A stretch of DNA of 64,000 nucleotides from Patescibacteria group bacterium. GTDB taxonomy: Bacteria; Patescibacteriota; JABMPQ01; JAQVVF01. The position numbers and the translations under genes were made by a program. The notes under the pieces are model-generated. The model searched no databases, was not told where the DNA came from, and saw only the letters and a program-made list of their open reading frames with translations. Location: assembly GCA_041662665.1 (NCBI GenBank), contig JBAZSC010000001.1, positions 129,511 through 193,510 on the forward strand, given 5' to 3'. Shown piece by piece: positions 5,896 through 58,850 of this stretch (the stretch's first letter is position 1; every line of letters starts with the position of its first letter).

Positions 5896-5944
5896 TTTAA
5901 AAATTTATTATAATAAAATTAATTTAAAAAATAAGGAGGGAAAA

Positions 5945-13410: not shown

Positions 13411-13588
13411 TCTTAGTATAGCAGAAAACAGAAAATAGAAAAAGTTATCATTTAAAGTTAATAGTCAATTGTTAATTGTTAAATGTTAGAAAACAAGTTA
13501 TCAACTGTTCAAGTAATTGTTCAAATTAACATTTTTTGCTATACTATACTTAATTAGAAATATTTATAAAAACAAAAAACAATTTATC

Positions 13589-14347: not shown

Positions 14348-14458
14348 ATTGCTGAACTGTTAAATTGTTAACTGCCAAATTGTTTAACCATTAAGCAATT
14401 TAGCAATCGAACAATTTAGCAATTAAGCAATTTAGCAATAATTAATTTAATTTAAAAT

Positions 14459-40741: not shown

Positions 40742-41000
40742 TAACTAGTTACTCGAATAAGTTATACACAAGCAACAAAAATCAGAGAAATAATTATTTT
40801 ATTTAGGCTTAAACAAGGTTATTATTCTTATAACTTACAACTTATAACTTATTTCTTCGTTTTGACACAAATTCATAAAATTGTTATTATTAAGCTAATA
40901 GAAAAAGTCCGCAATTTCTGCGTTAGCTTCTGCGTTAGCTTCTGCGTTAGCTTCTGCGTAGTTTAGCGAGTATTTACAAAACAAAATCAAATTAATCAAA

Positions 41001-42041
41001 ATGGCGAAACGAAAGCTCAAGCTATTTTTGCTTGTTATTTCCGGCCTCTTTATCTTTGGTGTAGGCTATATTTTCGCACAAAAATACCAAGACGATAATC
41101 AAAGTTCAACGAGTTCTTTTTTTCAATCAAGTCTTGATTCAGATAATGATGGCATAGTTGATGATCAGGAAAGAAAACTTAGTACAAATCCATATTTAGC
41201 AGATTCAGATTCTGATGGTTTTACTGACAAGCAAGAGGTTGATACAAAACACAATCCAAATGTTGCCGAATCTAAAGATAATCTAGATCAAGACAATGAT
41301 GGTTTAATTGGTTCAGATGAGAAAAAATTCGGTACTGACCTAAATAATGCTGATTCAGATTTTGATGGTTATCAAGATGGTGAGGAAATTGCTAATGGTT
41401 TTGATCCAACAAAAGCCAATTTAGGAAATATTAAGGCTCTGCTTAGCCAAATTCCAGATGAAAAAAAGCAAGAAGCAAAAGATATAACTGGAGTTGATCT
41501 AACTACTGGTTCATCAATTGATTCTTTGCAAGGAGTTCTAAATTCTGATCAATCTGAAGATTTGCAAAAAAATATTGATCAAATAGTAAGTGGCGCAAAT
41601 CAGGAATTAACTTTAGTTGAAGTAAAAGATAATGAAATAATTATTTCAGGTGATTCAAATTCTGAAACAAAAGATCAATATTTTGAATCATTTAACAATA
41701 TCGTAAAACAAAATCTAAATTTTTTGCTAGATCCAAATATTCAAGGCGAAATGATTAGCAAATATGGTGAAACAGAAACAACAATCAAAATTTCTCAAGC
41801 CTTCAGTAAATCAGCTGATGAATTTGAAAAAATAGCAGTTCCAAATGATTCAGATCTTATTAGTACACATCGAAAAATGATTTCTGTTTTCAGAACTTTA
41901 TCGCAAAAATATGATCTTATAGCCAATTCTCAAAGCAATAATTTGCCAACATTATCTCAAGCTCTAAAAGATATTTTGTCTTTAAATAAAATATTATACG
42001 AAGATATATTTGTTAAAATAAAAGAATTATCAATTTATTAA
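41001..42041 (+). CDS. secreted protein with thrombospondin-type-3-like Ca-binding Asp-rich repeats
   Basis: N-terminal TM/signal. DSDNDGIVDDQE, DSDSDGFTDKQE, DQDNDGLIGSDE and DSDFDGYQDGEE are DxDxDG-type repeats. Confidence 0.5.
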   Translation: MAKRKLKLFLLVISGLFIFGVGYIFAQKYQDDNQSSTSSFFQSSLDSDNDGIVDDQERKLSTNPYLADSDSDGFTDKQEVDTKHNPNVAESKDNLDQDNDGLIGSDEKKFGTDLNNADSDFDGYQDGEEIANGFDPTKANLGNIKALLSQIPDEKKQEAKDITGVDLTTGSSIDSLQGVLNSDQSEDLQKNIDQIVSGANQELTLVEVKDNEIIISGDSNSETKDQYFESFNNIVKQNLNFLLDPNIQGEMISKYGETETTIKISQAFSKSADEFEKIAVPNDSDLISTHRKMISVFRTLSQKYDLIANSQSNNLPTLSQALKDILSLNKILYEDIFVKIKELSIY

Positions 42042-42153
42042 ACGAGCAAATTCCGCGTTTTCTGCGATTAAAAATTTATTTCAAAATTTTTAATTTCCGC
42101 GTAATTCTGCGTTAAAAACTAATTAAATAGACTAGTAGCAATTAAATTTATAA

Positions 42154-42990
42154 ATGCTTAAAAAAATATCACTATTACTGTTAATCTTAACTCTATTCAT
42201 TACTTATAATGCTACTATTTTAACTGTCAAAAAAGCAGATGCCATTCCAGTAACAATCGATCTTCCAAGAGATACTGCAGATCGTGTTGGCATCACAATT
42301 TGGAAAGCTGCAATTTATCCATTAGTTCGCGATATGGTTTTATCTTTTGTTTCAACTGGCGATTTCAAGCTTAGCTGGAATAATGTTAAAGATTGGTTAA
42401 TTCACGATTTAGCTTTTCAAACCGCTAATGCTATTTTGCAAGAATATGTTGGTTTTAATTTGTGCACCACAATTGGAGCAGATGTCAGGATTGCTCTACT
42501 TCAAATGTACGATGACACTGGCTTTGCGCCAGATTGTACCTTTGATCAGAGTCAGCTTGCTCAAGTGACGGAAAAGCTCTTTTCGGATGATAGCACTTCC
42601 GCTTGGCAAGATGTAAGAAATTATTATTATGCCAATTTTCATTTAAGTCTTTTAGGCGAGGCAAATCAATTTGGCACTTGGTTCAAACTGCGAGATAATA
42701 TCAATGCTCAAGCGAATCAACGCCAACAAAATATCCGATTTGAAATGCTAATAAATGAGGGATTTTTAGGCAATTATGATTGTGCCGGTGTTCCAGAAAG
42801 CCGTCGTCCAGATGATTGTCGAGTTTTATCTCCTGGCATGATTACTGCAGAATTAATAAAAAGTAGCATAAGAGATCCAATGGATTCAGCTCTCAAGGCC
42901 CAAATGATAAATGATGTCGCAGCTCTTGGTGGAGTTGTTACTGATATGTTGAAAAATAAATTTATATATTCTATTTACGATAAATTATAA
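42154..42990 (+). CDS. secreted hypothetical protein
   Basis: Signal peptide MLKKISLLLLILTLFITYNA. No recognised domain. Confidence 0.45.
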   Translation: MLKKISLLLLILTLFITYNATILTVKKADAIPVTIDLPRDTADRVGITIWKAAIYPLVRDMVLSFVSTGDFKLSWNNVKDWLIHDLAFQTANAILQEYVGFNLCTTIGADVRIALLQMYDDTGFAPDCTFDQSQLAQVTEKLFSDDSTSAWQDVRNYYYANFHLSLLGEANQFGTWFKLRDNINAQANQRQQNIRFEMLINEGFLGNYDCAGVPESRRPDDCRVLSPGMITAELIKSSIRDPMDSALKAQMINDVAALGGVVTDMLKNKFIYSIYDKL

Positions 42991-43148
42991 AATTAATAAA
43001 ATAGTTTTAGTCAGTTTCTGTGTTTTCTGCGTTAGATTCTGCGTCATTCTGCGAAAACGTTTTAAGCGCAGAAAAACGCAGAATCTAACGCAGAGTCAAA
43101 AATTTTTATAACAAAATTTTTGACGCAGAAAAAATAGCCACAATCAAC

Positions 43149-45395
43149 TTGTTCAAAAATAAATCAAAATTAAAAAAAATATTAATAATTGCAATTTCCC
43201 TTGCTCTGTTTTTGATACCAACAGTTTTTGTTTTCGCGGACACAGGAGCAACTACAGCTCAGGCTAGTACTGGAACTAATGTCATAGATAAAACACTTTT
43301 GGGAGCAGTTACTTTGATTGTCGGTGGACTTTGCTATATTGCTGTTACAGTAATCACATTAGGCTTATGGATTATTGGTACAATTTTTGATTGGGTTATT
43401 GGTGGAACAACAATCAATGCTAGCTCAATGAATGAAATTGTTACAGCTGGTTGGGTATTGGTACGAGATATCTTAAATATTATTTTCGTTCTTGCATTAT
43501 TAGGCATTGCTTTTGCGACAATCTTAAGAATCGAAGCCTATCAATTTAAAACTTTATTGCCAAAATTATTAGTTGGCGCTTTGCTAGTTAATTTCAGCAA
43601 AACAATTGCATTAACATTAGTAGATTTTTCAAATGCTATTATGAGCGGAATAATGGGCACTCAAAATGGCGCAACAGCTTCTGCTTCTCTTTTAGCTTTA
43701 TTTAATGTTTCCAGTTTCTTGGATTTAAGTATGAATTTAGGAACACAGCTAAAAGTTGCAAGCACTGAACCTGCAGTATTAGGAACGAACATATTAGTTG
43801 TTGTGTTTTTAGGAATGTTTACGATGGCTTTAGCTGGATTAGCAGTTTTGTTAGTTATTCGTACTGTTGTTTTAATGATTTTAGTAGTTTTTTCTCCAAT
43901 TGCTTTTGTTTTAAATGTTTTACCAGTAACTCAAAAATATGCCAGCAAATGGTGGGAAGAATTTACAAAATATTTATTTGTTGGTCCAGTTGTTTGTATT
44001 TGTTATCTATTAGCTCTTCTTTTTGCTGTTAAATTTTCTCAAGGTGGAGGAATTACTGGTCTTACGGGTAATGTTGCTACGCAATTCAAAACCAATGTCG
44101 GCATGTCATCAGGCACAATTGGTCAATTCTTCGGCATGGCAATCGCTTGTGGAATTATGTTTGTTGGATTTACTTTTTCAAAAGAAGCAGCTGAAGGTTT
44201 AGCTGGTTCGGCGATGGGATTAGTTAAAAAAGGATTAATGGGAACAGCTGCATTGGCTGGCGGATTTGGAGCTAGAAAATTAAATGAATCATTAATGTCT
44301 GGTAAAAAGGGAAATATTGGCAAATTAATTTCAAAAGGATTGCAACTTGCTCGAGTTAGTCCGGGAACAGCAGACAAAGCTGGTGATCTTACTAAATTCC
44401 TAAGTCCGACTTTAGTTGCCGAAGGCTGGAAAGAAAGACAAGCTAAAAGAACAGCTGAAGCAATGTCCGGTGGCGCTGGTTTTATTCATGGCAGGATCAA
44501 TGCAGTTACAAATAAAATGCCATGGCTATTTGGCAAGGATGAAACTGATTTTGAACGACGTGGTCAAATGGAAAGTGTTGATAAACATATGTCAGAAATG
44601 AAAAAATATGGCAAAGGCAGTCATGAATATTATCGAAAAGAATTACGTGATTCTTTGGTCAAAAAAGATATGAGTCGGGCAGAAGCAGCTGTTATGTTGC
44701 TAGAAGGAGATGTGAATTTCAATGAAATTATGCGTGATGGAGTCTTGGGAAAAATGGTTGGTAATAAGTCGTATGATAAAGAAGGAAATGTTACAGGTTC
44801 TACGAAAACAGATTCAGTTACCGGCGCAGTAACTCCGATAGACAATACTCATAGCACCTCTTATGAAGCCTGGCAAGATTTCTTAATCCATAATTTCGGC
44901 AATCAGCGCGCAAAGTATATTGCTGGTAATTCCAATGATCTCTTGAAAGGTAAAGGAGAATGGGATAAAGCCGAATCTGTTAGAATTAATGAGCAAGGTC
45001 AAATGTTTTGGAATCCTGATCATGCTAAAGATGCAGCTGTCGAATGGTCAAAAGTTGGTTCTAGAAGTTCTGCTGCAGTTCCTAGATTTGCTGTCTCTAA
45101 TGAGAGGTATCAAAATGGTAGTGCTGTTGAACTCGCAATATCTCCAGTTCTACAAGAATATTTAAAAATTGGTGGTGTCAAAGGTTATTCTAAAGGTACT
45201 TTGGAGCAATTTATGCCGGATGCAACCAAAAAAGTTGTTCAACAACTCGAGACTCAGGTACGTGGAGTAATATCTGCTACGACTGTTTCAGCCCCAGCAC
45301 AAGCAGCAGGTACTGACTTTTTGACAATAGTGAGAGATCAGACCGGTGGAGAAGGTTTTTATCCAGGCACTACTAGAATTGTCGACAAAATTTAA
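43149..45395 (+). CDS. large polytopic membrane protein, VirB6/TrbL-like candidate
   Basis: 748 aa. Signal-like N-terminus, then 6 or more TM helices (residues about 55-340) and a long soluble C-terminal domain. The assignment rests on architecture and its position upstream of VirB3/VirB4-like genes, not on a motif. Confidence 0.4.
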   Translation: MFKNKSKLKKILIIAISLALFLIPTVFVFADTGATTAQASTGTNVIDKTLLGAVTLIVGGLCYIAVTVITLGLWIIGTIFDWVIGGTTINASSMNEIVTAGWVLVRDILNIIFVLALLGIAFATILRIEAYQFKTLLPKLLVGALLVNFSKTIALTLVDFSNAIMSGIMGTQNGATASASLLALFNVSSFLDLSMNLGTQLKVASTEPAVLGTNILVVVFLGMFTMALAGLAVLLVIRTVVLMILVVFSPIAFVLNVLPVTQKYASKWWEEFTKYLFVGPVVCICYLLALLFAVKFSQGGGITGLTGNVATQFKTNVGMSSGTIGQFFGMAIACGIMFVGFTFSKEAAEGLAGSAMGLVKKGLMGTAALAGGFGARKLNESLMSGKKGNIGKLISKGLQLARVSPGTADKAGDLTKFLSPTLVAEGWKERQAKRTAEAMSGGAGFIHGRINAVTNKMPWLFGKDETDFERRGQMESVDKHMSEMKKYGKGSHEYYRKELRDSLVKKDMSRAEAAVMLLEGDVNFNEIMRDGVLGKMVGNKSYDKEGNVTGSTKTDSVTGAVTPIDNTHSTSYEAWQDFLIHNFGNQRAKYIAGNSNDLLKGKGEWDKAESVRINEQGQMFWNPDHAKDAAVEWSKVGSRSSAAVPRFAVSNERYQNGSAVELAISPVLQEYLKIGGVKGYSKGTLEQFMPDATKKVVQQLETQVRGVISATTVSAPAQAAGTDFLTIVRDQTGGEGFYPGTTRIVDKI

Positions 45396-45413
45396 AAGTA
45401 TTATCAATAAGAC

Positions 45414-46835: not shown

Positions 46836-46949
46836 TTTCCAATTAACAATTTCCAATTTTCAATAAATTACCAATTTTCAATTTACAATGAATTCTCGCA
46901 GTTTTGAAAATTGGTTATTGGAAATTTATTGTAAATTGGTCATTGAAAA

Positions 46950-47393
46950 TTGAAAACTAATTTTATGCAGTATCCCATTCCTCAATTTGTCGAAATAGAA
47001 GACCAGATTATCGGCCCTCTGACTTTAAAACAATTTTTTTATTTATTAGGTGGCGGAATATTTTTACTGATTGCTTGGTCATTTGTTGATCTGACATTAT
47101 TCATTTTTCTAGCAATAATTGTTGCTGGAATAACAATGCCATTAGCTTTTGTCAAACCTTATGGCAGACCATTGACTGATTATCTTTCTGCAGTTTTCAA
47201 ATACATTTTAGGTCCAAAAATATTAGTCTGGCATAAAAGTGGAAGAGCTCCGAGAGTAAAAGCCTATGATCTTAATAAGAAAAAATCTGGTCCAGAAAAA
47301 ATCACCATTGGCGAAAAAAAATATACACCAAGCTCTATTCATCGTCTTGCAAGACAACTTGATTTTAAGACGGTCATGAGCGAAAAAAAATAA
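46950..47393 (+). CDS. small two-TM membrane protein, VirB3/PrgI-like candidate
   Basis: 147 aa. Two adjacent hydrophobic helices (LLGGGIFLLIAWSFVDLTLFIFLAIIVAGITMPLAF). Lies immediately upstream of the VirB4-like gene, as VirB3/PrgI does. Confidence 0.4.
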   Translation: MKTNFMQYPIPQFVEIEDQIIGPLTLKQFFYLLGGGIFLLIAWSFVDLTLFIFLAIIVAGITMPLAFVKPYGRPLTDYLSAVFKYILGPKILVWHKSGRAPRVKAYDLNKKKSGPEKITIGEKKYTPSSIHRLARQLDFKTVMSEKK

Positions 47394-47533
47394 TCATAAA
47401 TGATCAATTTCCAATTCTCAATTTTCAATAAGTTGCCAATGAACAATTTTCAATGGCTACTTCGTAAGTTTTGAAAATTGGTTAATTGATAATTTATTGG
47501 AAATTGTAAATTGATAATTGAAAATTAAAACTG

Positions 47534-48277
47534 ATGTCCAAAAAACAAGACAAGAAAAAAAATAGTGCTGAAACAAAGCAACAAGAAGAAACAATGCTTT
47601 CAAGCAAAGCAGTCAAGAAAGAAGAAGAGACTACTCAGAAGTTTTTAAAATTGTCTGGAATTAGAGATGGAATAGTAATTTTAAATAATAAAGCTCTACG
47701 AGCAATTGTAATGTGTTCATCAATTAATTTTGCTTTAATGTCTGAAGATGAACAAAAAGCAAAAGTTTTTGGCTATCAAGATTTTTTAAATTCATTAAAT
47801 TTTCCAGTTGAGATTGTCATTCAGACCAGAAAATTAAATATTGGAAGTTACTTAGAAAAAGTCAAAGAAGCAGAAAGAATGCAGGAAAACGAATTATTGA
47901 GAATCCAGACAGCAGAATATGCTGAATTTATCAAATCTTTAGTTGAACTAGCAAATATCACAACTTCTCATTATTATGTTGTTGTCCCATATTCTCCTCC
48001 TGGCATTGAAGCAACAGAAGGAATTTTAGATAAACTAAAAGGCATAATTTCACCAGCTTCAAAAATAAAAGAAGAGCAAGTTGGTTTTCAAAAGCAACAA
48101 GAAGAGCTTTTGCTTCGTGTTAATTCAGTTATCAGTGGTTTAGGCGGAGTTGGAATTCAATCAGCACAGCTAAATACTCAGGAAGTAGTTGAGCTATTAT
48201 ATTCATGGTATAATCCAGATGAGAGCACCACTGAGATTTTAGGAGAATTAGAGAAGCTCAAGATAGAGCAGGCATAA
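47534..48277 (+). CDS. VirB4/TrsE-like ATPase, N-terminal domain encoded as a separate ORF
   Basis: FLKLSGIRDGIVILNNKALRAIVMCSSINFALMSEDEQKAKVFGYQDFLNSLNFPVEIVIQTRKL matches the N-terminal region of Gram-positive VirB4 homologs (pattern I..DG.I......F.K.Y.L.DINF.....EEQ...F..F..FLNS....V.FQI). In homologs this region is contiguous with the segment that opens the next ORF. Confidence 0.55.
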   Translation: MSKKQDKKKNSAETKQQEETMLSSKAVKKEEETTQKFLKLSGIRDGIVILNNKALRAIVMCSSINFALMSEDEQKAKVFGYQDFLNSLNFPVEIVIQTRKLNIGSYLEKVKEAERMQENELLRIQTAEYAEFIKSLVELANITTSHYYVVVPYSPPGIEATEGILDKLKGIISPASKIKEEQVGFQKQQEELLLRVNSVISGLGGVGIQSAQLNTQEVVELLYSWYNPDESTTEILGELEKLKIEQA

Positions 48278-48278
48278 A

Positions 48279-48762
48279 AAAAATCCCAAATCCCAAATTC
48301 CAAACAAATTACAAATCACAAAAAACAAAATTGCCCGAACAAAATAAAACTAACAAATTATATAATCTCGAAGACCGAACTTTAGAATTTAGTAAAAGAG
48401 TTGCCAATATGTGCAACGCTTTGCCTAAAAATTATATTAATATTGTTTATATAAATCAGATTTTAAGATCAGGGAGTTCGATAGGTGCTAATTACATAGA
48501 AGCAAATGAATCATTAGGAAAAAAAGATTTTAAAATGAAAGTAAGAATTGCTAGAAAAGAAGCAAAAGAAACAACTTATTGGCTGAATTTAATAATAGAT
48601 GCTAATCCAGAATTTAGAAAAAGAATTGAACCATTATTACAAGAATCAATCGAAATAAGAAATATTTTATCAACAATAATAAACAAATCTAATTAATTTT
48701 TTTTGTAATTTGTATTTTGTATATTGTAATTTGTTTGGAATTTGGGATTTGTAATTTATAAT
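48279..48762 (+). mobile_element. IVS-like element: four-helix-bundle gene carried inside a 'caaatcccaaat'-family inverted repeat, inserted at the junction of the split VirB4 gene
   Basis: Left arm aaaatcccaaatcccaaattccaaacaaattacaaatcacaa (about 48279-48330). Right arm ttgtaatttgtattttgtatattgtaatttgtttggaatttgggatttgtaattt (about 48700-48762). Both flank CDS 48331..48696. Confidence 0.45.
48331..48696 (+). CDS. four-helix-bundle protein (23S rRNA IVS-type family), second copy
   Basis: LEFSKRVANMCNALPKNYINIVYINQILRSGSSIGANYIEANESLGKKDFKMKVRIARKEAKETTYWLNLI. Shares the family pattern with the 27846 gene. Non-ATG (TTG) start per the track. Confidence 0.55.
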   Translation: MPEQNKTNKLYNLEDRTLEFSKRVANMCNALPKNYINIVYINQILRSGSSIGANYIEANESLGKKDFKMKVRIARKEAKETTYWLNLIIDANPEFRKRIEPLLQESIEIRNILSTIINKSN

Positions 48763-50313
48763 AACGTTATGCAGGACAAAGATTTGCCAGTTGGCAAAAA
48801 AAATATCGAAAATTTGACTGAAGATGAGCAACAAGAAATCCTTAAGGCTGAAGAAATTTACAGAAAGGGTCTGGTTTCGATTCGCGATATTATTGCGCCA
48901 AGTGCATTGCAGGTTAATCCAAATTTTCTTAAATTAGGCGACAAGTTTGTCAGAACTTTGTTTATTTTTACATATCCTCGTTTTGTAAATACTGGCTGGT
49001 TTGCTCCAGTTATCAACATGAACATCGAAGCTGATATGGCGATGTATATTAATCCAGTTAGCTCCGAAAAAATCCTAAAAACTTTAAAAAATAAAGTTGG
49101 ACAAATCCAATCCACAATGGCAGGCAAGCAAGAAAAAGGCGAAGTTAGAGATCCAATGCTAGAAACAGCACTCAATGATGTTGAAGAACTTCGCGATCGT
49201 TTGATACAAGGCACAGAAAGATTTTTTCATTTTGCATTATATATCACAATTTACGAGAATTCTGAAAAAAAATTAGAGCAAACAACCAAAGAAATTGAAG
49301 ATTTACTTGGTCAAAGATTAATTTATTCCAAGCGAGCTTTTTTTCAAGCTGAACAAGGATTCAATACTACAACTCCGCTAGGTTTAGATGAACTAGGAGT
49401 CCTCAACAATTTTAATACATCTCCATTATCAACTAGTTTTCCATTTGTTTCTTCAGAATTAACTTCCGATGAAGGTGTTCTTTATGGAATTAATCGTCAT
49501 AATAATAGTCTAATTTTATTCGATCGTTTTACTTTGCCAAATGCTAATTCAGTTGTATTTGCAACTTCTGGTGCTGGAAAAAGTTATGCTGTAAAATTAG
49601 AAATTTTAAGATCTTTAATGTTTGGAACAGAAGTTATCGTCATTGATCCAGAAAATGAATATAAATATTTATGTGAATCAGTTGGAGGAACATTTTTAAA
49701 AATGTCTCTAGAATCAGAATACAGATTAAATCCATTTGATTTGCCAGTAGCAATTTCCGGCATGAAAACAAAAGACATTATTAGATCTGCAGTTATCAAT
49801 ATCAAAGGCTTATTAAGAATCATGTTGGGCCGTCTTACTAAAGAAGAAGATGCTTTGTTAGATAGAGGAATTATTGAGACATATGCTAAAAAAGATATTA
49901 CTGCTGAATCAGATTTGTCAAAAATAGAAGTTCCGACAATGAAAGATCTGCAAGAAATTCTAGAAGGCATGCAAGGAGCAGAGGATATAGTTCCAAGAAT
50001 TAAAAAATATACTGAAGGCACTTTTGCTGGATTATTAAATCAAGCCACAAATGTCAGAATTGATAATCCATTTGTCGTTTTTAGCATCAGAGATCTAGAA
50101 GATGAGTTACGTCCAATCGCAATGTATGTTATTCTTAATCATATCTGGAATATTGTTAGAGCAGAGATGAGAAAAAGAATTTTGGTAGTTGATGAAGCTT
50201 GGTGGATGATGCAATACGAAGAATCTGCCAGATTTATGTACAGTATTGCCAAAAGAGGCCGAAAATATTATCTTGGCACAACCACAATTTCTCAGATGTT
50301 AATGATTTTCTAA
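48742..50313 (+). CDS. VirB4/TrsE-like ATPase, central ATPase portion (frame changes near 50300)
   Basis: DIIAPSALQVNPNFLKLGDKFVRTLFIFTYPRFVNTGWFAPVIN (conserved VirB4 segment). Walker A VVFATSGAGKSYAVKLE. Walker B/arginine region ILVVDEAWWMM...AKRGRKYYLGTTTISQ. The likely start is the Met at about 48769, which has no SD. The ORF terminates 2 codons after the conserved TQ. Confidence 0.7.
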   Translation: MGFVIYNNVMQDKDLPVGKKNIENLTEDEQQEILKAEEIYRKGLVSIRDIIAPSALQVNPNFLKLGDKFVRTLFIFTYPRFVNTGWFAPVINMNIEADMAMYINPVSSEKILKTLKNKVGQIQSTMAGKQEKGEVRDPMLETALNDVEELRDRLIQGTERFFHFALYITIYENSEKKLEQTTKEIEDLLGQRLIYSKRAFFQAEQGFNTTTPLGLDELGVLNNFNTSPLSTSFPFVSSELTSDEGVLYGINRHNNSLILFDRFTLPNANSVVFATSGAGKSYAVKLEILRSLMFGTEVIVIDPENEYKYLCESVGGTFLKMSLESEYRLNPFDLPVAISGMKTKDIIRSAVINIKGLLRIMLGRLTKEEDALLDRGIIETYAKKDITAESDLSKIEVPTMKDLQEILEGMQGAEDIVPRIKKYTEGTFAGLLNQATNVRIDNPFVVFSIRDLEDELRPIAMYVILNHIWNIVRAEMRKRILVVDEAWWMMQYEESARFMYSIAKRGRKYYLGTTTISQMLMIF

Positions 50314-50603
50314 CATCAGATTATGGTAAAGCAATTGTTACTAATTCCGCTTTGCAATTATTATTAAAACAATCTCCAGCCTCAATTGATTTATTGAAAA
50401 AAACTTTTTATCTAACAGAAGAAGAAAAATATTTACTTTTAGAATCAGATGTTGGTGAAGGTATTTTCTTTGCAGGTAGCAAACATGTTGCAATTAAAAT
50501 AGTCGCTTCATATTCAGAAGACCAAATCATTACCACAGATCCAAAACAATTATTAGAATTAGAACAAGCCAAGAAGAATTATGAACAAGAACAAAATGTT
50601 TAA
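50199..50603 (+). CDS. VirB4/TrsE-like ATPase, C-terminal portion in the -1 frame
   Basis: From ...DVNDFLTSDYGKAIVTNSALQLLLKQ onward this frame continues the VirB4 C-terminus. It overlaps the previous ORF by 115 nt. This means a frameshift, an authentic pseudogene, or a sequencing indel near 50300-50315. Confidence 0.55.
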   Translation: MVDDAIRRICQIYVQYCQKRPKILSWHNHNFSDVNDFLTSDYGKAIVTNSALQLLLKQSPASIDLLKKTFYLTEEEKYLLLESDVGEGIFFAGSKHVAIKIVASYSEDQIITTDPKQLLELEQAKKNYEQEQNV

Positions 50604-50611
50604 AAACAAAA

Positions 50612-50715
50612 GCCACAAATCCCAAATTCCAAACAAATTTCAAATTACAAATCACAAAATTGCAAGTTTGTTTATTGTGATTTGTGATTTGTTTGGATTT
50701 TGGAATTTGTAATTT
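50612..50715. repeat. intergenic composite palindrome, 'caaatcccaaat' family (copy 6)
   Basis: ccacaaatcccaaattccaaacaaatttcaaattacaaatcacaaaattgcaagtttgtttattgtgatttgtgatttgtttggattttggaatttgtaattt. Confidence 0.7.
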
Positions 50716-50741
50716 ATTTCTATATTTAATAAAATAAAAAT

Positions 50742-51410
50742 ATGTTTAAAAAATCTTACATCATTTTAGCTCTAACATTAATTGCACTTGCAACAACTGC
50801 CTTCGGTTGTAAAAAAGCCGACACAAATACTAATCAGCCAGCCAATCAAAATGCAAATGTTGTTGCCAACAATACAAACGTGGTTGCAACAAATGATAAT
50901 GAGTTTCCGATTGTAAATGCCAATGAAGCATTAAATGCAAATGAAAATGTTACACTTAATGTCAATGAAACAGAAAATGCAGTTACAGAAAATTTAAATG
51001 CCATCGAAAATCAAGGCGAAATAAAAGTTGAGCAAGACCAAGAAAAAACAGTTTTAGCTTTAGCTTCAAAAATTGCTGAAATTTACGGCACTTTTACTAA
51101 CAAGGACAAAGAAGCCTACAAAAATCTAAAAACAATCAAAACTTACTCAACAGAAAAAATGAGCGCTTTTCTTGATGAACAAATTGCCAAACCGATAGAT
51201 CCAAAAGCATCATTTTATGGTGTAACCACAAAAACAATCAGTTCTGGAATTTCTGATACAACTGATAAAGAAATGACTGCCATTGTTACAACCAAGAGAG
51301 AAGAAATCACAGCTCAAAATAACAAGCCAACTGTCAAATATCAAATTTTAAAACTTGAATTTACAAAAGTCGGTGAAGAATGGAAATTAAGCGGGGCTTT
51401 CTGGTTGTAA
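50742..51410 (+). CDS. lipoprotein (Asn/Val-rich N-terminal region)
   Basis: Signal peptide + lipobox LATTAFGC. Confidence 0.5.
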   Translation: MFKKSYIILALTLIALATTAFGCKKADTNTNQPANQNANVVANNTNVVATNDNEFPIVNANEALNANENVTLNVNETENAVTENLNAIENQGEIKVEQDQEKTVLALASKIAEIYGTFTNKDKEAYKNLKTIKTYSTEKMSAFLDEQIAKPIDPKASFYGVTTKTISSGISDTTDKEMTAIVTTKREEITAQNNKPTVKYQILKLEFTKVGEEWKLSGAFWL

Positions 51411-51600
51411 TAATACAAATATGCAAATTTATGCAAATGATACGAATATACGAATTCGCAAATTATAATTAGTTCTAAAAAGTGATTTACAATCAAAAAT
51501 AAAATATTCGCTCGATTCGCATATTTGCAACATTTGCATTATTCGTATATTCGTATTATATTTTCACGTTTCTACTCGATAATTTTTTTAAATAATCAGT

Positions 51601-52266
51601 ATGAGAAATACTGTTAGTGATATAAATATAAATAAAGAATTATTTTATTATGAAAAACTAAAGGAGATTAAACACAAAAAAAAATCATCTCCAGATTTTG
51701 ATAATTATAAAAAAAATTTTTCTTCAAACTATGGTGCGCATTTAGCAAATCAAAAAAGTATCTCTGCTTTTGATGGAGCAGAAGGAGCAGAAGCAGAACA
51801 ATCTGCTGAAGAAATGCCAGATACTGTTGCAAGAGGTGAAGAAGGCGGTAACTATGAACAATTTAACCGTCTAAAAAGTGAAGCATTAGAAAGAGCCAAA
51901 AAAACAAAAGGCGGAGCAGAAAGAGCAGCTAAAGTTGCGAAAGCAGCTCAACAGCTTAAAAATATAAAAAACATAAAAAATTTATTAACGTTGGTAAAAG
52001 CTTTTGCCGCTTTTGATCCTATTACATTGTTGGTCACTTGGGTAATTATGAATGTTCAGTTTATCGGTGGCAATATCTTTAAATCAAAAAAAATTCCTCC
52101 ACTTGGAGGGATCGAATTACTTATCTATATTCCAGTCGCAATTTTCGTTTTTACCTTTAGTCTTCCTATGATTATGCTACCTCTCATTACAACCGGATTA
52201 GTTGGTGGCGCCCTTGCAGGCATTGCAAATATTGCGAGTTCAATTGGCACAAACATAGGTATATAA
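51601..52266 (+). CDS. hypothetical protein with two C-terminal TM helices (a pilin/VirB2-like role is speculative)
   Basis: Soluble Ala/Glu-rich N-terminal half, then LLTLVKAFAAFDPITLLVTWVIM and IYIPVAIFVFTFSLPMIMLPLITTGLVGGALAGIANIASSIG. Confidence 0.35.
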   Translation: MRNTVSDININKELFYYEKLKEIKHKKKSSPDFDNYKKNFSSNYGAHLANQKSISAFDGAEGAEAEQSAEEMPDTVARGEEGGNYEQFNRLKSEALERAKKTKGGAERAAKVAKAAQQLKNIKNIKNLLTLVKAFAAFDPITLLVTWVIMNVQFIGGNIFKSKKIPPLGGIELLIYIPVAIFVFTFSLPMIMLPLITTGLVGGALAGIANIASSIGTNIGI

Positions 52267-52271
52267 AATAT

Positions 52272-53750
52272 ATGAACAAAAACAAAATAATCATTTTCTT
52301 TGGGTTAATAACATTGCTTTTAGGTTTTAATCAAGTTTTTGCGCAAGACGAGGTTCAATTCCCAAGCGATCTGCAAAGCTTTATTAATGCTAACCCAAAC
52401 AATATTACTTCGAATGATCTTAAAAACATGCTTCCATTAAGCGTTACTTTAGATTATTCTCCAAAGCCAGTTTCAGCAACAAGTCCAGTCAAAGTGACAG
52501 CTAATGCGATTAGCAGTACTCAATCAAATGGCGTAACTTATCGCTGGTTTTTGGATGGCCAAGAAAAAAAGGTCAGCAATTCTGTTTTTGAATTTAATAT
52601 GAATGAAGGATTAATTCGCCAAGATTTGCGTTGCGGAGATTCTCGAGAAATAAAAGTTGAAGCCTCAAATTCTAATACTAAAGAAAAAGCAATTTCCACA
52701 TTAAAAATTCCGATTGGCTTAGATTTGTCATTTAACAAAAGATCAATTGGTGTTGCTGATCAAAATAATGCTGCTACAACAGATTATAATTTGAATAAAG
52801 CAGATATTGATCCAAATAGCATTATTTTGCAGGCTCCAGATATTTTCTTAAAGCCAACTCCTTCGCAAAATGAATTTCGTTTTGGAGATATTGTTCAAGT
52901 TGAAGCTGTAGATTTAAGGAATACTTATAACAATCAAGCTTGTACTTCCGCTTCCAATTTCACAAGTTTAGACAGCTATTTAGATAGCCTAAATTATCAA
53001 TGGACATATAATGGAACAGTTCAACAAGGAAAAAGCGGCAAAGGACAAAAATTTAAAACTGCTTCTTTCGTTATCAACACTTTGCCTGCACAAGTAATCC
53101 AAAATGATTTAGGATCATGCAACGCTACACAATCCCAAAATATCAATGTTGTTGGTTTAACAATTGCAGATTCTTCTGGAAAAACTTTAGCAACAAAGCA
53201 AGAATCATTAAATGTCATCGCTCCTCAAATTAATATCAAGCCAATTTGCGGCGCTTTCGGCAAAGATGTTAATTGCGCAAATATTAATTCCACAAATTTA
53301 AAATCAACTTATGGCGTTGCTCAAAGTTATCAATTAAATTCTGGCCAAACAATTAATTTTCAAGCAAATTTAAATAATTTTCAGCCATCACAACAATTAA
53401 ATTTAATTTGGAAAGTTAATGGCACAGAAGTTGATAACAAAACTATCGTTGATCCAAATACTCCATATTTCACTTCTCCAAATCTTACAATGACTAGCCA
53501 AATTCAGATTGTCGAAGTTAGCGCAATTAACACTGTCTATAATTCCAATCAAACAGAAAATGCCACTCAAAAAATTATTTTAACTCCAACTCAAGTTAAT
53601 GCCCAAATTTCTACATCTGGCACTCTAGGATCATTGCAAAAATTCTTGCCTAAAAATTTCCGAAATTTATATAATTTTATTGCAGCAGCCGGATTATTAG
53701 GTATTATAATTTTATTAATAACTATAAAAGAGAAGAAAAAAAATGGATAG
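52272..53750 (+). CDS. secreted protein with a C-terminal TM anchor
   Basis: Signal peptide IIIFFGLITLLLGFNQVFA. Beta-rich body. C-terminal AAAGLLGIIILLITI + KEKKKNG. Confidence 0.45.
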   Translation: MNKNKIIIFFGLITLLLGFNQVFAQDEVQFPSDLQSFINANPNNITSNDLKNMLPLSVTLDYSPKPVSATSPVKVTANAISSTQSNGVTYRWFLDGQEKKVSNSVFEFNMNEGLIRQDLRCGDSREIKVEASNSNTKEKAISTLKIPIGLDLSFNKRSIGVADQNNAATTDYNLNKADIDPNSIILQAPDIFLKPTPSQNEFRFGDIVQVEAVDLRNTYNNQACTSASNFTSLDSYLDSLNYQWTYNGTVQQGKSGKGQKFKTASFVINTLPAQVIQNDLGSCNATQSQNINVVGLTIADSSGKTLATKQESLNVIAPQINIKPICGAFGKDVNCANINSTNLKSTYGVAQSYQLNSGQTINFQANLNNFQPSQQLNLIWKVNGTEVDNKTIVDPNTPYFTSPNLTMTSQIQIVEVSAINTVYNSNQTENATQKIILTPTQVNAQISTSGTLGSLQKFLPKNFRNLYNFIAAAGLLGIIILLITIKEKKKNG

Positions 53751-54984
53751 AAAAAGAATATTAATTATCATTGGTATCGTCGCGTTGATTATTGCTTTCG
53801 CTGCAACAATCTATTTTGTGATTTTCCGAAAGCAAACAAAAGTTGCTTCAGATCTTCCAGCTTTAAATGAATCAGAACAACAAAGATTGCAATTAACAAA
53901 TGAAGAAAGAGCTGCCGGCGTTACTGAAGACCAAAAAATCCAGCAATATGTTGCTGAAAAAAGGAAAGAAATTGCCTTACAAGCAGAAACAGCAGTTACA
54001 AATAAATATCGAGTCATTCCAGTCTTAAACCAAAAATCAATTAGCCCAACATTATCAGCTGATTTTAGTAAACTTATTTTTTACAGCCCAGAAAATAAAG
54101 AATTTTATGTTGCCAATTTAGATGGCAGTCAGCCTTCGCCAATAACTTCATCTGCAATTGACAAAGTTTATGATATTTCATGGTCCAAGAAAAAAGATCG
54201 AGCAGTCATGACATTGTCAGACAATCAAGGATTGACCAGAAATTATTTAATTTTTGATATTAACAATCAAAAACAAACTCCAGTTGATCCAAATTTCAAA
54301 TCTCCAACATTATCTCCAGATGGTGAAAAAATCGCATATTTATTTAAAGACAAAGCATCAGGCACTTCCAATATTTCTGTTTCTAATTTAGATGGCACGA
54401 ATTGGAATAGCGTTTCTCCTTTTGAAGGCGAGTTTCCAATTATCAATTGGAATCTAGAATCAAAGCTTCTTTATTACAGCGAGCCAAGCACTCAAACAAA
54501 TGCCACTGCTTTTTCCGCCAATATTATTGGCAAAAGTTTCAATCAATTAGTTAGTGATTTTGGTCTTAATGTTAATATTTCAAATGACGGCAACAAAATT
54601 GTTTATTCAGGACAAAATGTTTCAAGCGCCACTACAACAAATTTGCAATTCTATGATGTTTTAGCAAATAAAAATGTTGATTTAGGCGTTCAAACATTTG
54701 CTGATAAATGTACTTGGCTTCCAGATAATCAAAATTTAATTTGCGCAATTCCAGAGAATCTAAGCAAATGTATGATTTTGCCAGATGCCTATAATAATTA
54801 TAATTTTGTTTCCAAAGATTCTTTCTTCAAAGTTGATACTCAAAATAACAAGACAACAAAATTAGCAGATACAAGTTTATTCGCTCAAGATTATGATGTC
54901 TTCAAGCCATTCATGCTTGGCGAAAAAATAATGTATTTTACAAGAAGACAGGATGGATTGCTTTATGCGTTTGTTATTCCTTGA
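53743..54984 (+). CDS. membrane-anchored TolB-like beta-propeller (PD40 repeat) protein
   Basis: N-terminal TM. PD40-like repeats LSPDGEKIAYLFKD and ISNDGNKIVYSGQN. Confidence 0.45.
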   Translation: MDRKRILIIIGIVALIIAFAATIYFVIFRKQTKVASDLPALNESEQQRLQLTNEERAAGVTEDQKIQQYVAEKRKEIALQAETAVTNKYRVIPVLNQKSISPTLSADFSKLIFYSPENKEFYVANLDGSQPSPITSSAIDKVYDISWSKKKDRAVMTLSDNQGLTRNYLIFDINNQKQTPVDPNFKSPTLSPDGEKIAYLFKDKASGTSNISVSNLDGTNWNSVSPFEGEFPIINWNLESKLLYYSEPSTQTNATAFSANIIGKSFNQLVSDFGLNVNISNDGNKIVYSGQNVSSATTTNLQFYDVLANKNVDLGVQTFADKCTWLPDNQNLICAIPENLSKCMILPDAYNNYNFVSKDSFFKVDTQNNKTTKLADTSLFAQDYDVFKPFMLGEKIMYFTRRQDGLLYAFVIP

Positions 54985-55123
54985 CGAATTTTCAATTTAT
55001 AATTTCTAATTTCTATTAAATTTTAAATAACTAATTTCTAAAGCTATCGTAGAGAAGGTTTGAAAATTTTAGCATTGAAAATTTAATAGAAATTAGGAAT
55101 TAGAAATTAGAAATTTTCTCTTT

Positions 55124-57031
55124 ATGAATTCTAAAATAAAAAAAATAATCTATTCCTTCATAATATTCCTGAATATTCTTTTTTTTGCGTCTCCAATTTT
55201 GCCAACTTATGCTGCCGGTTGTCCTGAAGGTAAAGTTGCAGTAATCGGCGATTCGTTGACAGTAGGATATGGCCCAAGGTTAAAGGCCAAATGTCCGAAA
55301 GTTGATGTTTTTGCCAAAAGTGGTGCCGAAACTTCTTTTATTAAAGGCCTTCTTGAACAAAATGTTTTAAATGGGGGATATAACCAGGTTATAATTTTCG
55401 CAGGAGTAAATGATGCAAACAATCTTAAATCTCCAGCAAATATCGAAAAAAATCTTGCTGACATGTACAAAGAAGCCAAAGATAAAAATATTGCAGTTAC
55501 AGCTATTACTATTCCATATTGGACTGAGCTCGCAACAGATAGAAAAGGTCAGCAAAAAAAACAGATTATATCTGAAGTAAATACATGGATTCAACAAAAT
55601 GCGCCAAATACTATAACTGCTCCAACATGGGTTGAAAAGCTGCACAGTGGAACAAATTATACCAATCTGATTGCCAAAATCATGAGTGCATCATTGCCAG
55701 CAACACAGACGACGACTACTCCAACTCCTACTCCAATAGCTCCTACGACTCCAACTACAAATGATGTCAAAGCAACTTGCAAAGGAACTGATTCGCTAGA
55801 TCAAAGTCAAACAAAAGATATAACTTTTTCAACCACAGAAACCGATCAAAGTAAAATCGCCACTGGAGCTTCTGATCAATGCTATAAAGAATGTGATACT
55901 GAAGGATGGACGAATTGCTCAGCTACAGTTAATAGCGTTACTGCTCAAGCACCAACTCAAACTCCAATTCCAGGAAGTGACGGTTCAACTCCAGCTACAG
56001 GTGTTGATACTACAGCTCAAGCTCCAACATTTGAGCCTAATCCATCATCATTAGTTTCTGGCAGTACTGCCTGTGAAATTTGGAAAAATGCTTTTAATTT
56101 AGGAATTTCATTTATCGGTGTCGCTGCATTGGCTGGAGTAATCTGGGGCGGATTCGGATATATCACATCTTATGGTAATCAAGAAAAAATAAAATCTGCC
56201 AAAGAAACAATTTGGGGATCAGTTGGTGGAATGTTTATCGGTCTTTTTGCTTATGTTTTATTTTCTTTAGTAAATCCTTATGTTTTGCAATGTAAAATAG
56301 ATGCGCCGTTTAAATTAAGTATTAGCGGTGCAACTGGGCAAAATCCAAGTGGGACTGGAACACAAGGACAAGGACAAGGACAAGGAGGTACTCTTCTTTC
56401 AGGCAGTGCAAGCGATTTAGGAAAATGCGCCAAGACCTACGATACAAATAATAAGAGCAATCGTTATACACAGATAGTAGAAAATGCTGCAAGGACATAC
56501 AATGTTGATCCATTCTTCCTTGAATCAACACTCGATCATGAAAGTTCATTTGACAATGGTGCTGTAAACAAAAATAGCGGTACTCTTAGTATGGGGCAAT
56601 TTATGCCTGGTACCTTTGATGCAGCTGCCTCAGAATGGTCAAAATCTACTGGCAAAAGCGTTGAGCAATCTTGCCTTAATGAAATTAGCTCAGGACCTGT
56701 TGACCCCAATGCAGGCTACTGTTCAAAAAAGAGAAATCCTAATTGCCCAGCATACATCAGTTATTCTCCAAGATGTAAGCAATGGGTCAAAGATCATTCG
56801 AATGAAATGGTAGAAATCGTTGCTGTTCATCTAAAACAATTATTAAGAAATATCCCAACCGACAATTATGCTTGTGTTGCTGCTGGATATTTTTCTGGAG
56901 CCGGTGGTGGAAGGACTTGGTGCAAAGATCCTAATATGCCTGGGTGGAAAGAAGAAGACAGAGCAGAAGTTAATAAATATGTGAATAAAGCAGCAACCCT
57001 ATATAATAAAGCCTGCCAGAGAGGAAAATAA
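55124..57031 (+). CDS. fusion protein: SGNH/GDSL hydrolase + Thr/Pro linker + TM hairpin + lytic transglycosylase (SLT) domain; VirB1/PrgK-like candidate
   Basis: VAVIGDSLTVGYG (GDSL block I). TTTPTPTPIAPTTPTT linker. Hydrophobic hairpin ISFIGVAALAGVIWGGFGYI / MFIGLFAYVLFSLV. LESTLDHESSFDNGAVNKNSGTLSMGQFMPGTF matches SLT-domain motifs ES.F....S.AGA.GLMQ..P.T. Confidence 0.55.
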   Translation: MNSKIKKIIYSFIIFLNILFFASPILPTYAAGCPEGKVAVIGDSLTVGYGPRLKAKCPKVDVFAKSGAETSFIKGLLEQNVLNGGYNQVIIFAGVNDANNLKSPANIEKNLADMYKEAKDKNIAVTAITIPYWTELATDRKGQQKKQIISEVNTWIQQNAPNTITAPTWVEKLHSGTNYTNLIAKIMSASLPATQTTTTPTPTPIAPTTPTTNDVKATCKGTDSLDQSQTKDITFSTTETDQSKIATGASDQCYKECDTEGWTNCSATVNSVTAQAPTQTPIPGSDGSTPATGVDTTAQAPTFEPNPSSLVSGSTACEIWKNAFNLGISFIGVAALAGVIWGGFGYITSYGNQEKIKSAKETIWGSVGGMFIGLFAYVLFSLVNPYVLQCKIDAPFKLSISGATGQNPSGTGTQGQGQGQGGTLLSGSASDLGKCAKTYDTNNKSNRYTQIVENAARTYNVDPFFLESTLDHESSFDNGAVNKNSGTLSMGQFMPGTFDAAASEWSKSTGKSVEQSCLNEISSGPVDPNAGYCSKKRNPNCPAYISYSPRCKQWVKDHSNEMVEIVAVHLKQLLRNIPTDNYACVAAGYFSGAGGGRTWCKDPNMPGWKEEDRAEVNKYVNKAATLYNKACQRGK

Positions 57032-57043
57032 TTTTTAAAGAAT

Positions 57044-58132
57044 ATGAAAACTCGTTCAAAATTAATTATTGGAAGTTTAATCTTTTTAATCCTAATTATT
57101 GTTGGTGCGCTTTTGGTTCAATATTTTTTTAAGAATAAAAATGAAACACAATTGCAGACTTCCCTAGAATCAGTTACTGCTTTTTCGGCAAATGAAACAA
57201 ATCAAATCAAAACAGAAATTAGCGAAACCATCCAATTTCCGAGTCATATTCTAAGTAACGGAGAGATCTATTCTTATAATTTAGATAATAGCAAATTTTA
57301 TAAGACCAATTTAAGCACAAAAAAAAGTTTAGCTATTATACCTTTTGCCAATACAGATAATATTATTAACGCCCAATGGGATCAAAGTAATGATAAGGTT
57401 CTTGCTATTCAAGATAATTCTTACAAGATATTTAGTTTAAATGATAGCAAAGTATATCCGCTTGATAATAATTTATCCAATCTTTTTTGGCTTGATGGCA
57501 ACAGATTAATTGGAAATTATTATAAACCTGAGGATAGTACAAATAGAATTTTAATTATCAATAGTCAAGGAGAGCTTCAAGAAACTATTTTAGATTTAGA
57601 AACTTCAATTGATGCTTTGCCAGTAAATATAATTGGCGCAAGCAATAATAATGTTTATTATCTTTTGAATGGCTATTTATATGAACTGAATCTATTAACA
57701 AAAGAGAATAATAAAATTATTGAACAGCAAATTACATCTGCCAAAATTTCACCTAGATCTGATAAAATAATATATAGTACTTTCATTGATGAAAAATTTT
57801 CTGATTTTGTTTTTGATTTAAATACAAGAGCGACTGCTCAATTACAAAATATTGATATTGATGCCAGCAATATTCTTTGGAGCAGTGATGAAAGTACTCT
57901 CTATTTAATAAAAAACAGCCTTGAAATAAGTGAAGGCTCCAGTGCATCTAGCTATTATCTTTTAGACAAAATAGAAAAATACAATTTAAATAATCAGCAA
58001 GTAGAATCAACAATAGACATTGCAGGTCAAGGTAAATATGGAGCAGACGATTTTTTCTTATCTAGCGATGAATCAAAAATCTATTTTGTAAATTCAGCCA
58101 ATTCTTTTCTCTACTCAATCAACTTAAAATAA
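57044..58132 (+). CDS. hypothetical N-terminally anchored protein
   Basis: N-terminal TM. Beta-rich body. No recognised motif. Confidence 0.4.
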   Translation: MKTRSKLIIGSLIFLILIIVGALLVQYFFKNKNETQLQTSLESVTAFSANETNQIKTEISETIQFPSHILSNGEIYSYNLDNSKFYKTNLSTKKSLAIIPFANTDNIINAQWDQSNDKVLAIQDNSYKIFSLNDSKVYPLDNNLSNLFWLDGNRLIGNYYKPEDSTNRILIINSQGELQETILDLETSIDALPVNIIGASNNNVYYLLNGYLYELNLLTKENNKIIEQQITSAKISPRSDKIIYSTFIDEKFSDFVFDLNTRATAQLQNIDIDASNILWSSDESTLYLIKNSLEISEGSSASSYYLLDKIEKYNLNNQQVESTIDIAGQGKYGADDFFLSSDESKIYFVNSANSFLYSINLK

Positions 58133-58166
58133 TAAATTCATCTAATAATTAAAGTAATAATCAACT

Positions 58167-58850
58167 ATGGCAAATGAAATGCAAACGCCTCAAGAAGTTA
58201 TAGACGCAGCAGAATCAGAAATTCCGACACAACAGGAGGCAGTAGAAGCGCAAGGAGAATCAAAAACATATGGAGCAGTAGATCTTGATGCCAAGCTCAT
58301 AACATACCAAGACAAGAATGCTCAAGAATATACGAAAGAAGAAGGTTATCGTAGTGAGGATGTCAGCAATTATAGTGAAGGAGATATGATTGGTGCTCTA
58401 CAAGATGGAAGAAAAATGTCCAAAGATGATACTAGATCAGCATTGGCCTCTTTAGATTCCTCTGGCATCAAAAGACTGCAAGAGATGGCTGCCGATAGTA
58501 GAGTAAGAAATCGAGAAAGAAATAAAAACGTAGAACAAGAATATACTAATGCAGGACGATTAGAAAAACTTGCACAGCAAGCTGAGCAACTGACATCTTT
58601 GAGGAGCGAAGAAGGACAGCGAAAATTTATCCAAGAAATTGCTCAATCATTAAATTTTGGCACATATTTAAATCGTAAAACTACAAATAAACTTAACTCA
58701 ACTCTTTCTTTACTTCAAACGCATGATCCTGAAGCAAAAAAGATAATTTTTAATGAAATAAAACCTGCGCTTCAAGATGCAGTTAAAGACAGCAATTTGC
58801 CATCAGACAAAGACACTGTAGATAAGATTATTGCAGAATATCAAGGTTAA
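58167..58850 (+). CDS. hypothetical acidic protein
   Basis: 227 aa. Followed by the terminator GCCTGCcaaaattaaGCAGG + T-run (about 58867-58892). Confidence 0.4.
   Translation: MANEMQTPQEVIDAAESEIPTQQEAVEAQGESKTYGAVDLDAKLITYQDKNAQEYTKEEGYRSEDVSNYSEGDMIGALQDGRKMSKDDTRSALASLDSSGIKRLQEMAADSRVRNRERNKNVEQEYTNAGRLEKLAQQAEQLTSLRSEEGQRKFIQEIAQSLNFGTYLNRKTTNKLNSTLSLLQTHDPEAKKIIFNEIKPALQDAVKDSNLPSDKDTVDKIIAEYQG

Follow-up and report, generated by a model that had tools for sequence, protein, structure and literature searches.

A chromosomal type IV secretion gene cluster with a Gram-positive-type core and no nearby relaxase gene in a Patescibacteria genome

The stretch of Patescibacteria DNA analyzed here, 64 kb long and referred to as the window, carries at positions 41001-58850 a cluster of genes for a type IV secretion system (T4SS). 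An initial annotation, made from the sequence alone, had described the interval as a run of co-directional genes, encoding a chromosomal T4SS-like apparatus of Gram-positive type rather than a conjugative element. The listed open reading frames (ORFs) all exist: they lie on the + strand, at the coordinates given below, all in the same direction and separated by short spacers, and all but virB4 are intact. By hydropathy, the products include proteins with signal-like N-termini, one of 748 aa that is polytopic, a small one with two transmembrane (TM) segments and several that are N- or C-terminally anchored. The cluster is real, well conserved and chromosomal, with a Gram-positive-type core and no relaxase nearby. 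The general description is upheld by VirB4 and PrgI scores above curated thresholds, by housekeeping flanks and by the gene order shared with relatives; systems of this kind had already been published (PMC10633639, PMC12102498). Relatives were collected by scanning species-representative genomes with the repaired VirB4 as query, and the 80 related loci are numbered L001, L002 and so on. Pfam domain scans covered all window ORFs of at least 100 aa.

The translocon is composed of an extended VirB6-like protein, a PrgI/VirB3 protein, a TrsD-like module, a VirB4 ATPase and a VirB8-like lipoprotein. The features found in this part of the cluster are the following:

43149-45395, +: extended VirB6/TrbL-like polytopic channel protein, 748 aa
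45414-46835, +: conserved soluble Lys-rich protein, 473 aa, unknown family
46950-47393, +: PrgI/VirB3-like small membrane protein
47534-48277, +: TrsD-like protein, 247 aa, the extreme N-terminal VirB4 module as a gene of its own
48281-48757, +: inserted cassette with a 23S-rRNA-IVP/four-helix-bundle ORF, not part of the T4SS
48769-50603, +: VirB4/TrsE-type ATPase, 611 aa after repair of a 1-nt deletion
50742-51410, +: VirB8-like (NTF2-fold) probable lipoprotein

The virB4 ORFs match the Pfam families P-loop_TraG, AAA_10 and CagE_TrbE_VirB, and both Walker motifs are present (SGAGKS for A, VVDEAW for B). After repair, the protein reaches 352 bits (cutoff 325 bits) with the NCBIfam model conju_CD1110, which describes VirB4-like conjugal transfer ATPases of the CD1110 family, and covers model positions 169-734: it is therefore a VirB4 of the MPF-FATA lineage. 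The initial annotation was right in recognizing a VirB4/TrsE-like ATPase, while its view of the gene as split has to be revised. The apparent disruption is explained by three separate things: a conserved trsD/virB4 gene pair, an apparently mobile cassette in the spacer, and a 1-nt deletion, probably an assembly error.

The TrsD-like protein, encoded just upstream, matches NCBIfam TrsD (3e-5), positions 91-233 of the 894 of VirB4_plasma (2.8e-9) and positions 11-134 of the 752 of conju_CD1110; the model positions it covers complement those covered by the virB4 gene. A separate ORF of 210-260 aa precedes virB4 in 71 of the 80 related loci, and TrsD is the commonest VirB4 partner in a published survey of Patescibacteria (PMC12102498), where it is adjacent to VirB4 as it is here. 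The division into two genes is therefore ancestral, as for TrsD and TrsE of pGO1. The hypothesis that the 247-aa ORF is a duplicate of the VirB4 N-terminal domain was rejected, as pairwise similarity is absent and the family-model positions are complementary.

The sole real lesion of virB4 is the deletion of one nucleotide between 50294 and 50295, where the window reads TCTCAGATG, while L001, L002 and L003 read TCTCAAGATG. Logan contig SRR18595301_516426 (run SRR18595301), assembled independently from the same strain, matches window positions 49743-51544 with 0 mismatches over 1803 nt and one base extra, and its virB4 ORF is intact. The deletion is likely to be an assembly or consensus error, or else a minor allele. 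A virB4 pseudogene was rejected, given the intact reading frame in an otherwise identical assembly.

The small protein with two TM segments, assigned from the start to the VirB3/PrgI position, matches Pfam PrgI (2.3e-8; 34.9 bits, gathering cutoff 27 bits) and, weakly, TcpE; a PrgI homologue is located upstream of virB4 in 66 of the 80 loci. Hydropathy also agrees with the reading of the 748-aa protein as polytopic. In this VirB6/TrbL-like protein a TM domain, at residues ~45-360, is followed by a soluble, well-folded C-terminal domain at ~470-740. Its VirB6-like assignment rests on fold comparison and on transitive Pfam matches; a family profile, compared with PDB sequences, returned noise only. 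The 473-aa protein, encoded between the VirB6-like and PrgI genes and syntenic in 13 loci, shows no TM segment by hydropathy, and none of its 14 homologues has a Pfam match. The only PDB matches of its family, to ferritin, were judged spurious.

For the product of 50742-51410, the initial annotation had proposed a lipoprotein, which is probable in view of a lipobox-like AFGC motif at residue 20; the resemblance to VirB8 had been missed. A profile of 14 homologues matches PrgL (7aed) across the whole C-terminal domain, weakly (E 0.077). The AF2 model (pLDDT 90) finds the PrgL VirB8 domain as top Foldseek match (9.3e-4); TcpC, TraH, OrfG, CagV and Rickettsia VirB8 come later, mixed with unrelated NTF2-fold proteins. 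A membrane-anchored NTF2-like domain is thus predicted beside virB4, as for members of the VirB8 family, the sequence evidence alone being weak, and the modeled protein is best described as a probable VirB8-like lipoprotein.

The cassette in the spacer between trsD and virB4 contains an ORF of 121 aa (48331-48696), matching Pfam 23S_rRNA_IVP (4.7e-17), bracketed by a 49-nt inverted repeat, whose arms (48281-48329 and 48709-48757) are 88% complementary. A second such cassette is found in the window at 27792-28276, upstream of cdaA and outside the T4SS operon. Others are present in relatives: L001 (8295-8783, 9528-9984, 11842-12323), L002 (8648-9128) and L046 (2573-3032). Among close relatives they sit in differing spacers of the T4SS operon, three in L001 and one each in the window and L002. 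Their genes encode ~110-125 aa, between repeat arms of 18-65 nt, ~350-430 nt apart. The T4SS cassette of the window is 40-60% identical to the copies in related loci, and the sequence of the inverted repeat differs in every copy. The layout resembles that of rRNA intervening sequences, but the spacers concerned belong to mRNA. Mobility of the cassette is suggested by this, and it may also be processed by RNase III. The window was found to contain no reverse transcriptase of the kind known from diversity-generating retroelements.

The remaining part of the cluster includes an extracellular module, made of a pilin hairpin with GDSL and SLT domains, two TolB-like propellers, a TSP3 protein and further surface proteins. 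Its features, together with the best promoter match before the first gene, are listed below:

40862-40890, +: sigma-70-like promoter match, TTGACA-17-TATTAT, TG-extended
41001-42041, +: Ca-binding protein, secreted or anchored, four TSP3/DxDxDG repeats
42154-42990, +: secreted 278-aa protein, unknown family
51601-52266, +: 221-aa membrane protein, unknown family
52272-53750, +: surface protein, 492 aa, with signal peptide and C-terminal TM anchor
53743-54984, +: N-terminally anchored PD40/TolB-like beta-propeller
55124-57031, +: GDSL-pilin-SLT fusion protein, 635 aa
57044-58132, +: second N-terminally anchored propeller-like protein, 362 aa
58167-58850, +: soluble 227-aa protein

The product of 55124-57031 had been described as a fusion of GDSL and lytic transglycosylase domains. 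Both are found by Pfam (Lipase_GDSL_2, 6.3e-10; SLT, 2.2e-4), along with T4SS_pilin (PF18895, 4.8e-4); NCBIfam adds a weak match (7.8e-4) to the Mbov_0395 pilin-like conjugal transfer protein. From the N-terminus, the protein features a signal peptide, a GDSL/SGNH esterase (residues 40-158), a Thr/Pro linker, a VirB2-like two-helix hairpin (318-384), a Gly/Gln linker and the SLT domain (from ~452 on), with the motifs GDSLT42, GVND94, EKLH171, HES473 and SMGQF489. A VirB2-like pilin near virB4 is therefore present, here as a domain of a fusion protein. PF18895 is matched by all 17 homologues of the fusion protein from related loci (best 1.7e-18), while SLT, GDSL and M15 domains are present in only part of them. 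A hidden Markov model (HMM) of the hairpin has the fusion protein as its sole match in the window, with no further pilin copy; across the related loci it detects 85 ORFs, distributed over 56 of the 80 loci, with one or two genes per such locus. Altogether, 83 of the 86 scanned pilin-module sequences, window protein included, match PF18895. As the pilin family is found in nearly all members and the enzyme domains in only some, the VirB2-like module is the conserved core of the family, and the enzymes are add-ons.

Among the 86 pilin-module proteins, SLT is present in 10, GDSL in 6 and Peptidase_M15 in 2. In Moranbacteria-like relatives (L029-L058, ~6.5-8.7 kb), the pilin modules are encoded upstream of prgI by tandemly paired ORFs of 140-350 aa; in closer relatives of the window, the modules lie downstream of virB4, inside larger proteins.

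With the topology of VirB2, both enzyme domains would point outward. Lytic transglycosylases require a free C6-OH on MurNAc, and a fused O-acetyl esterase would for this reason be mechanistically sensible. The pilin role had initially been given to another product, the 221-aa protein with C-terminal TM segments, and this assignment was rejected: the protein has a charged cytoplasmic N-terminal region and no signal peptide, the pilin HMM is silent on it, Pfam and NCBIfam scans give no significant match, and close homologues are only three.

Two secreted proteins, one of them Ca-binding, were correctly anticipated at the beginning of the cluster. The former of the two matches Pfam TSP3_bac (8.6e-10), with DxDxDG motifs at residues 46, 68, 96 and 118 and an N-terminal hydrophobic segment by hydropathy; in 13 of the related loci, its gene is located in the interval from ksgA to the VirB6-like gene. 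The 278-aa protein, with a signal-like segment at residues 4-26, is syntenic in L001, L002, L005 and L061. The signal peptide and C-terminal anchor of the 492-aa protein were recognized by hydropathy, and the corresponding proteins of relatives are 494 to 1143 aa long. The anchored beta-propellers also stand. The protein encoded at 53743-54984 matches Pfam PD40, DPPIV_N and Peptidase_S9_N and is found in 34 of the 80 loci; the 362-aa protein, featuring a TM anchor and syntenic in L002 and L003, is a distant paralogue of it (BLASTP E 4e-5). Direct Pfam and NCBIfam scans gave nothing significant for the 278-, 473-, 492-, 362- and 227-aa proteins. The last of these has no tblastn counterpart in the closest relatives, and in L002 and L003 radA directly follows the 362-aa homologue: 58167-58850 is probably a lineage-specific insertion, outside the T4SS. 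The promoter match at 40862-40890, to a consensus and in AT-rich DNA, is no more than suggestive.

The cluster is flanked by housekeeping genes, PcrA/UvrD and KsgA upstream, RadA and RecG downstream. By tblastn, the order ksgA, TSP3, 278-aa, VirB6, 473-aa, PrgI, TrsD, VirB4, VirB8-like, surface module, radA, recG is maintained among relatives down to about 60-75% VirB4 identity, and both cluster and flanks are conserved across diverged Patescibacteria. VirB4 identity in the 80 loci ranges from 97 to 54%. Nearly all of them are labelled as Patescibacteria, Parcubacteria, Kerfeldbacteria, Komeilibacteria, Moranbacteria or 'Saccharibacteria' metagenome-assembled genomes (MAGs); judged as nearest neighbours, all 80 are MAG contigs of Patescibacteria type that share this neighbourhood. 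The records of L014, L021, L026, L029, L031, L034, L042, L054 and L070 bear titles such as 'uncultured Gammaproteobacteria', 'Bdellovibrionales' or 'Pacearchaeota archaeon', despite a Patescibacteria-type T4SS neighbourhood: the taxonomy given for these MAGs is probably wrong.

For the core genes, homologues are known from Gram-positive conjugation systems (conju_CD1110, PrgI, TrsD, PrgL-like), and virB4 is frameshifted in the window; both facts would suit an integrated conjugative element (ICE), or its decaying remnant, with relaxase, type IV coupling protein (T4CP) and integrase lying outside the window or lost. Such an origin is highly improbable. Housekeeping flanks and gene order are kept even where VirB4 identity is only 55-75%, and this conserved synteny shows it to be false; moreover, the frameshift is absent from the otherwise identical assembly and the remaining ORFs are intact. 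G+C content is ~30-36%, equal in the T4SS locus and its flanks, without a compositional break. In agreement with the initial annotation, no relaxase, coupling protein or integrase domain is found in the ORFs scanned over the whole 64 kb, and no FtsK-like or T4CP domain besides VirB4 itself. Of the features of a conjugative T4SS or ICE in monoderms, the relaxase/oriT pair is thus lacking in the window, as judged from the missing relaxase domain; no VirD4/TcpA-type coupling protein lies within the window; and, in place of an integrase with att sites and variable presence, cluster and flanks are conserved in diverged genomes. Given housekeeping flanks and synteny across diverged Patescibacteria, the locus is a vertically inherited chromosomal system and not a recently integrated ICE.

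The other genes of the window are housekeeping ones as well (RecF, DciA, IF-2, RbfA, CdaA, ClpP, RNase Y, YmdB); tRNA and Rfam scans of the window gave zero matches. Gene orientation flips from - to + at ~13.4 kb (window ~12000-14500), coinciding with the minimum of cumulative GC skew, a possible sign of a replication origin located ~27 kb before the T4SS locus. However, no enrichment of DnaA boxes was observed, and neither dnaA nor dnaN is present; recF and dciA are found at 21.9-23.4 kb. Two very large ORFs, 14459-17653 and 17705-21112 (1064 and 1135 aa), are essentially without family matches, and 5852-8212 encodes a 786-aa protein with three lamin-tail domains and an OB-fold/DUF5689 region. 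All three products may be exposed at the surface or bind nucleic acids, functions of interest for life as an epibiont.

Taken together, the locus is, with a probability of about 0.85, a vertically inherited chromosomal T4SS typical of Patescibacteria (the candidate phyla radiation), derived from the MPF-FATA conjugation machinery of monoderms. Several points weigh against this conclusion. VirB4 is frameshifted as written in the window, and its clade membership was judged from nearest neighbours only. The 748-aa VirB6-like protein has no direct Pfam match and nothing significant in NCBIfam. NTF2 folds are common, so that the VirB8 assignment depends on match ranking and genomic position. The SLT score of the window protein is 0.1 bit under the Pfam cutoff, although homologues reach 3e-18. 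Finally, a T4CP may lie elsewhere on the 645-kb source contig; surveys find one in most Patescibacteria genomes.

Systems of this type have been described in two main reports. In Southlakia epibionticum, the T4SS (genes SEML1_0006-0019) is essential for epibiotic growth, as determined by Tn-seq; it resembles Gram-positive conjugation systems and features pilins, while neither a coupling protein nor a relaxase could be recognized (Wang et al. 2023, PMC10633639). In the survey by Quinonero-Coronel et al. (2025, PMC12102498), VirB4 is present in 2,417 of the 3,035 genomes of Patescibacteria and makes up a clade within MPF-FATA, with TrsD, PrgI/VirB3, VirB6 and VirB2-like pilins adjacent and few relaxases; ksgA is among the genes near virB4, joined in class ABY1 by comF, recG and radA. 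GDSL, PD40, TSP3 and pilin-enzyme fusions are not mentioned in the survey text. The T4SSs of Patescibacteria are considered unique among monoderms in a 2025 review, while a 2024 perspective calls their role 'completely unknown'.

In the mechanism proposed here, the system would take no part in conjugation and would act at the site of contact with a host cell. VirB4, with TrsD and PrgI, would energize both a VirB6/VirB3/VirB8 channel and the assembly or display of a surface structure based on the pilin hairpin. The GDSL domain may strip O-acetyl groups from peptidoglycan, allowing the fused transglycosylase to open the wall, either that of the cell itself or that of the host; macromolecules would then be exchanged with the host cell through the channel. 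As to the direction of transport, the tentative preference is for import, with nucleic acid or other macromolecules taken up from the host. This leaning comes from the T4CP-independence of the essential function in S. epibionticum, from the precedents of ComB and Ced, which import without a T4CP, and from the flanking radA and recG.

Transport in the opposite sense, with effector proteins injected into a host bacterium and a T4CP encoded elsewhere in the genome, has been a matter of published speculation for Saccharibacteria. A pilin module joined to wall-degrading domains would suit such contact-dependent delivery, and T4CP homologues are indeed present in 2,918 of 3,035 Patescibacteria genomes, mostly distant from virB4 (PMC12102498). 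In S. epibionticum, however, the distant T4CP homologue is not essential, unlike the T4SS genes (PMC12102498); with neither T4CP nor candidate effector recognized in the window, and no known substrate, effector export is rather unlikely. The surface proteins lend themselves to another explanation, a pilus or adhesion organelle for host attachment, translocating no substrate. Its case is built on the VirB2-like core of the fusion family, on the 56 of 80 loci with one or two pilin-module genes, on the many anchored surface proteins (propellers, TSP3 protein, C-terminally anchored 492-aa protein) and on tubular structures at a parasite-host interface, possibly T4SS pili according to the authors of a 2026 preprint. 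The preprint also reports feeding on host RNA. A hairpin embedded in a 635-aa enzyme fusion is nevertheless hard to square with thin-pilus polymerization, and the complete VirB6/VirB3/VirB8/VirB4 channel set is kept, which makes a purely adhesive organelle unlikely.

A more specific form of the preferred uptake can be imagined, in which the T4SS of this sub-lineage would be a feeding device: the hairpin would present esterase and transglycosylase drilling the host wall, and the VirB4/VirB6 channel would import host nucleic acids or other macromolecules. It is a quite doubtful possibility. If true, it would serve a cell unable to make its own nucleotides, and the pilin-enzyme fusion would represent a kind of T4SS component that has not been described before.

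Compared with known systems, the locus agrees most closely with the Patescibacteria-clade T4SS (PMC12102498, PMC10633639): VirB4 with an adjacent TrsD-like protein, PrgI/VirB3, VirB6, a PF18895 pilin domain, no relaxase or T4CP nearby, a chromosomal position beside ksgA, radA and recG, and relatives only in Patescibacteria MAGs. It differs in having, instead of small pilins in an array, a single pilin module within a GDSL-pilin-SLT fusion; a clearly VirB8-like lipoprotein, VirB8 homologues being rare in the survey and missing from the structure-based annotation of S. epibionticum; and conserved TolB-like propellers with a TSP3 protein, not mentioned in the survey text.

With the pGO1/pSK41-type systems (TrsC-TrsD-TrsE; MPF-FATA), the locus shares the order VirB3-like, TrsD, VirB4, the N-terminal VirB4 module as a separate gene, and a monoderm architecture without the VirB7, VirB9, VirB10 core. 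It is, in contrast, chromosomal and vertically inherited, has no relaxase, oriT or T4CP in the window, and contains a VirB2-like pilin module, lacking in Gram-positive systems. The Prg/Pcf system of pCF10 comprises PrgH (VirB6-like), PrgI, PrgJ (VirB4), PrgK (hydrolase) and PrgL (VirB8-like). Common to both are the PrgI family, a PrgL-like NTF2 domain, as best structural match, and a wall hydrolase in the cluster, here with an SLT domain. Here the hydrolase is joined with the pilin hairpin and the GDSL esterase, in pCF10 with LytM and CHAP domains; VirB4 is here encoded by two genes, one TrsD-like and one for the ATPase; and PrgB adhesin, PcfC coupling protein and PcfG relaxase are missing. 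ComB of H. pylori and the archaeal Ced system are likewise chromosomal, with a VirB4-type ATPase and no dedicated coupling protein or relaxase. ComB, however, has a diderm VirB7-10 core, and Ced components are unrelated except for the ATPase. Both are DNA-uptake systems, whereas uptake by the Patescibacteria system is putative; in S. epibionticum, moreover, ComEC-dependent competence is separable from the T4SS.

The locus is, in conclusion, an ordinary member of the known Patescibacteria T4SS, described in 2023-2025 and present in almost all of these ultra-small bacteria. This T4SS is essential in the sole species tested, and the locus does not make its role more testable. Its additions are modest: a VirB8-like lipoprotein, an extended VirB6, the GDSL-pilin-SLT fusion and conserved TolB-like propellers. 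Such annotation detail, added for one sub-lineage, could guide structural or biochemical work.

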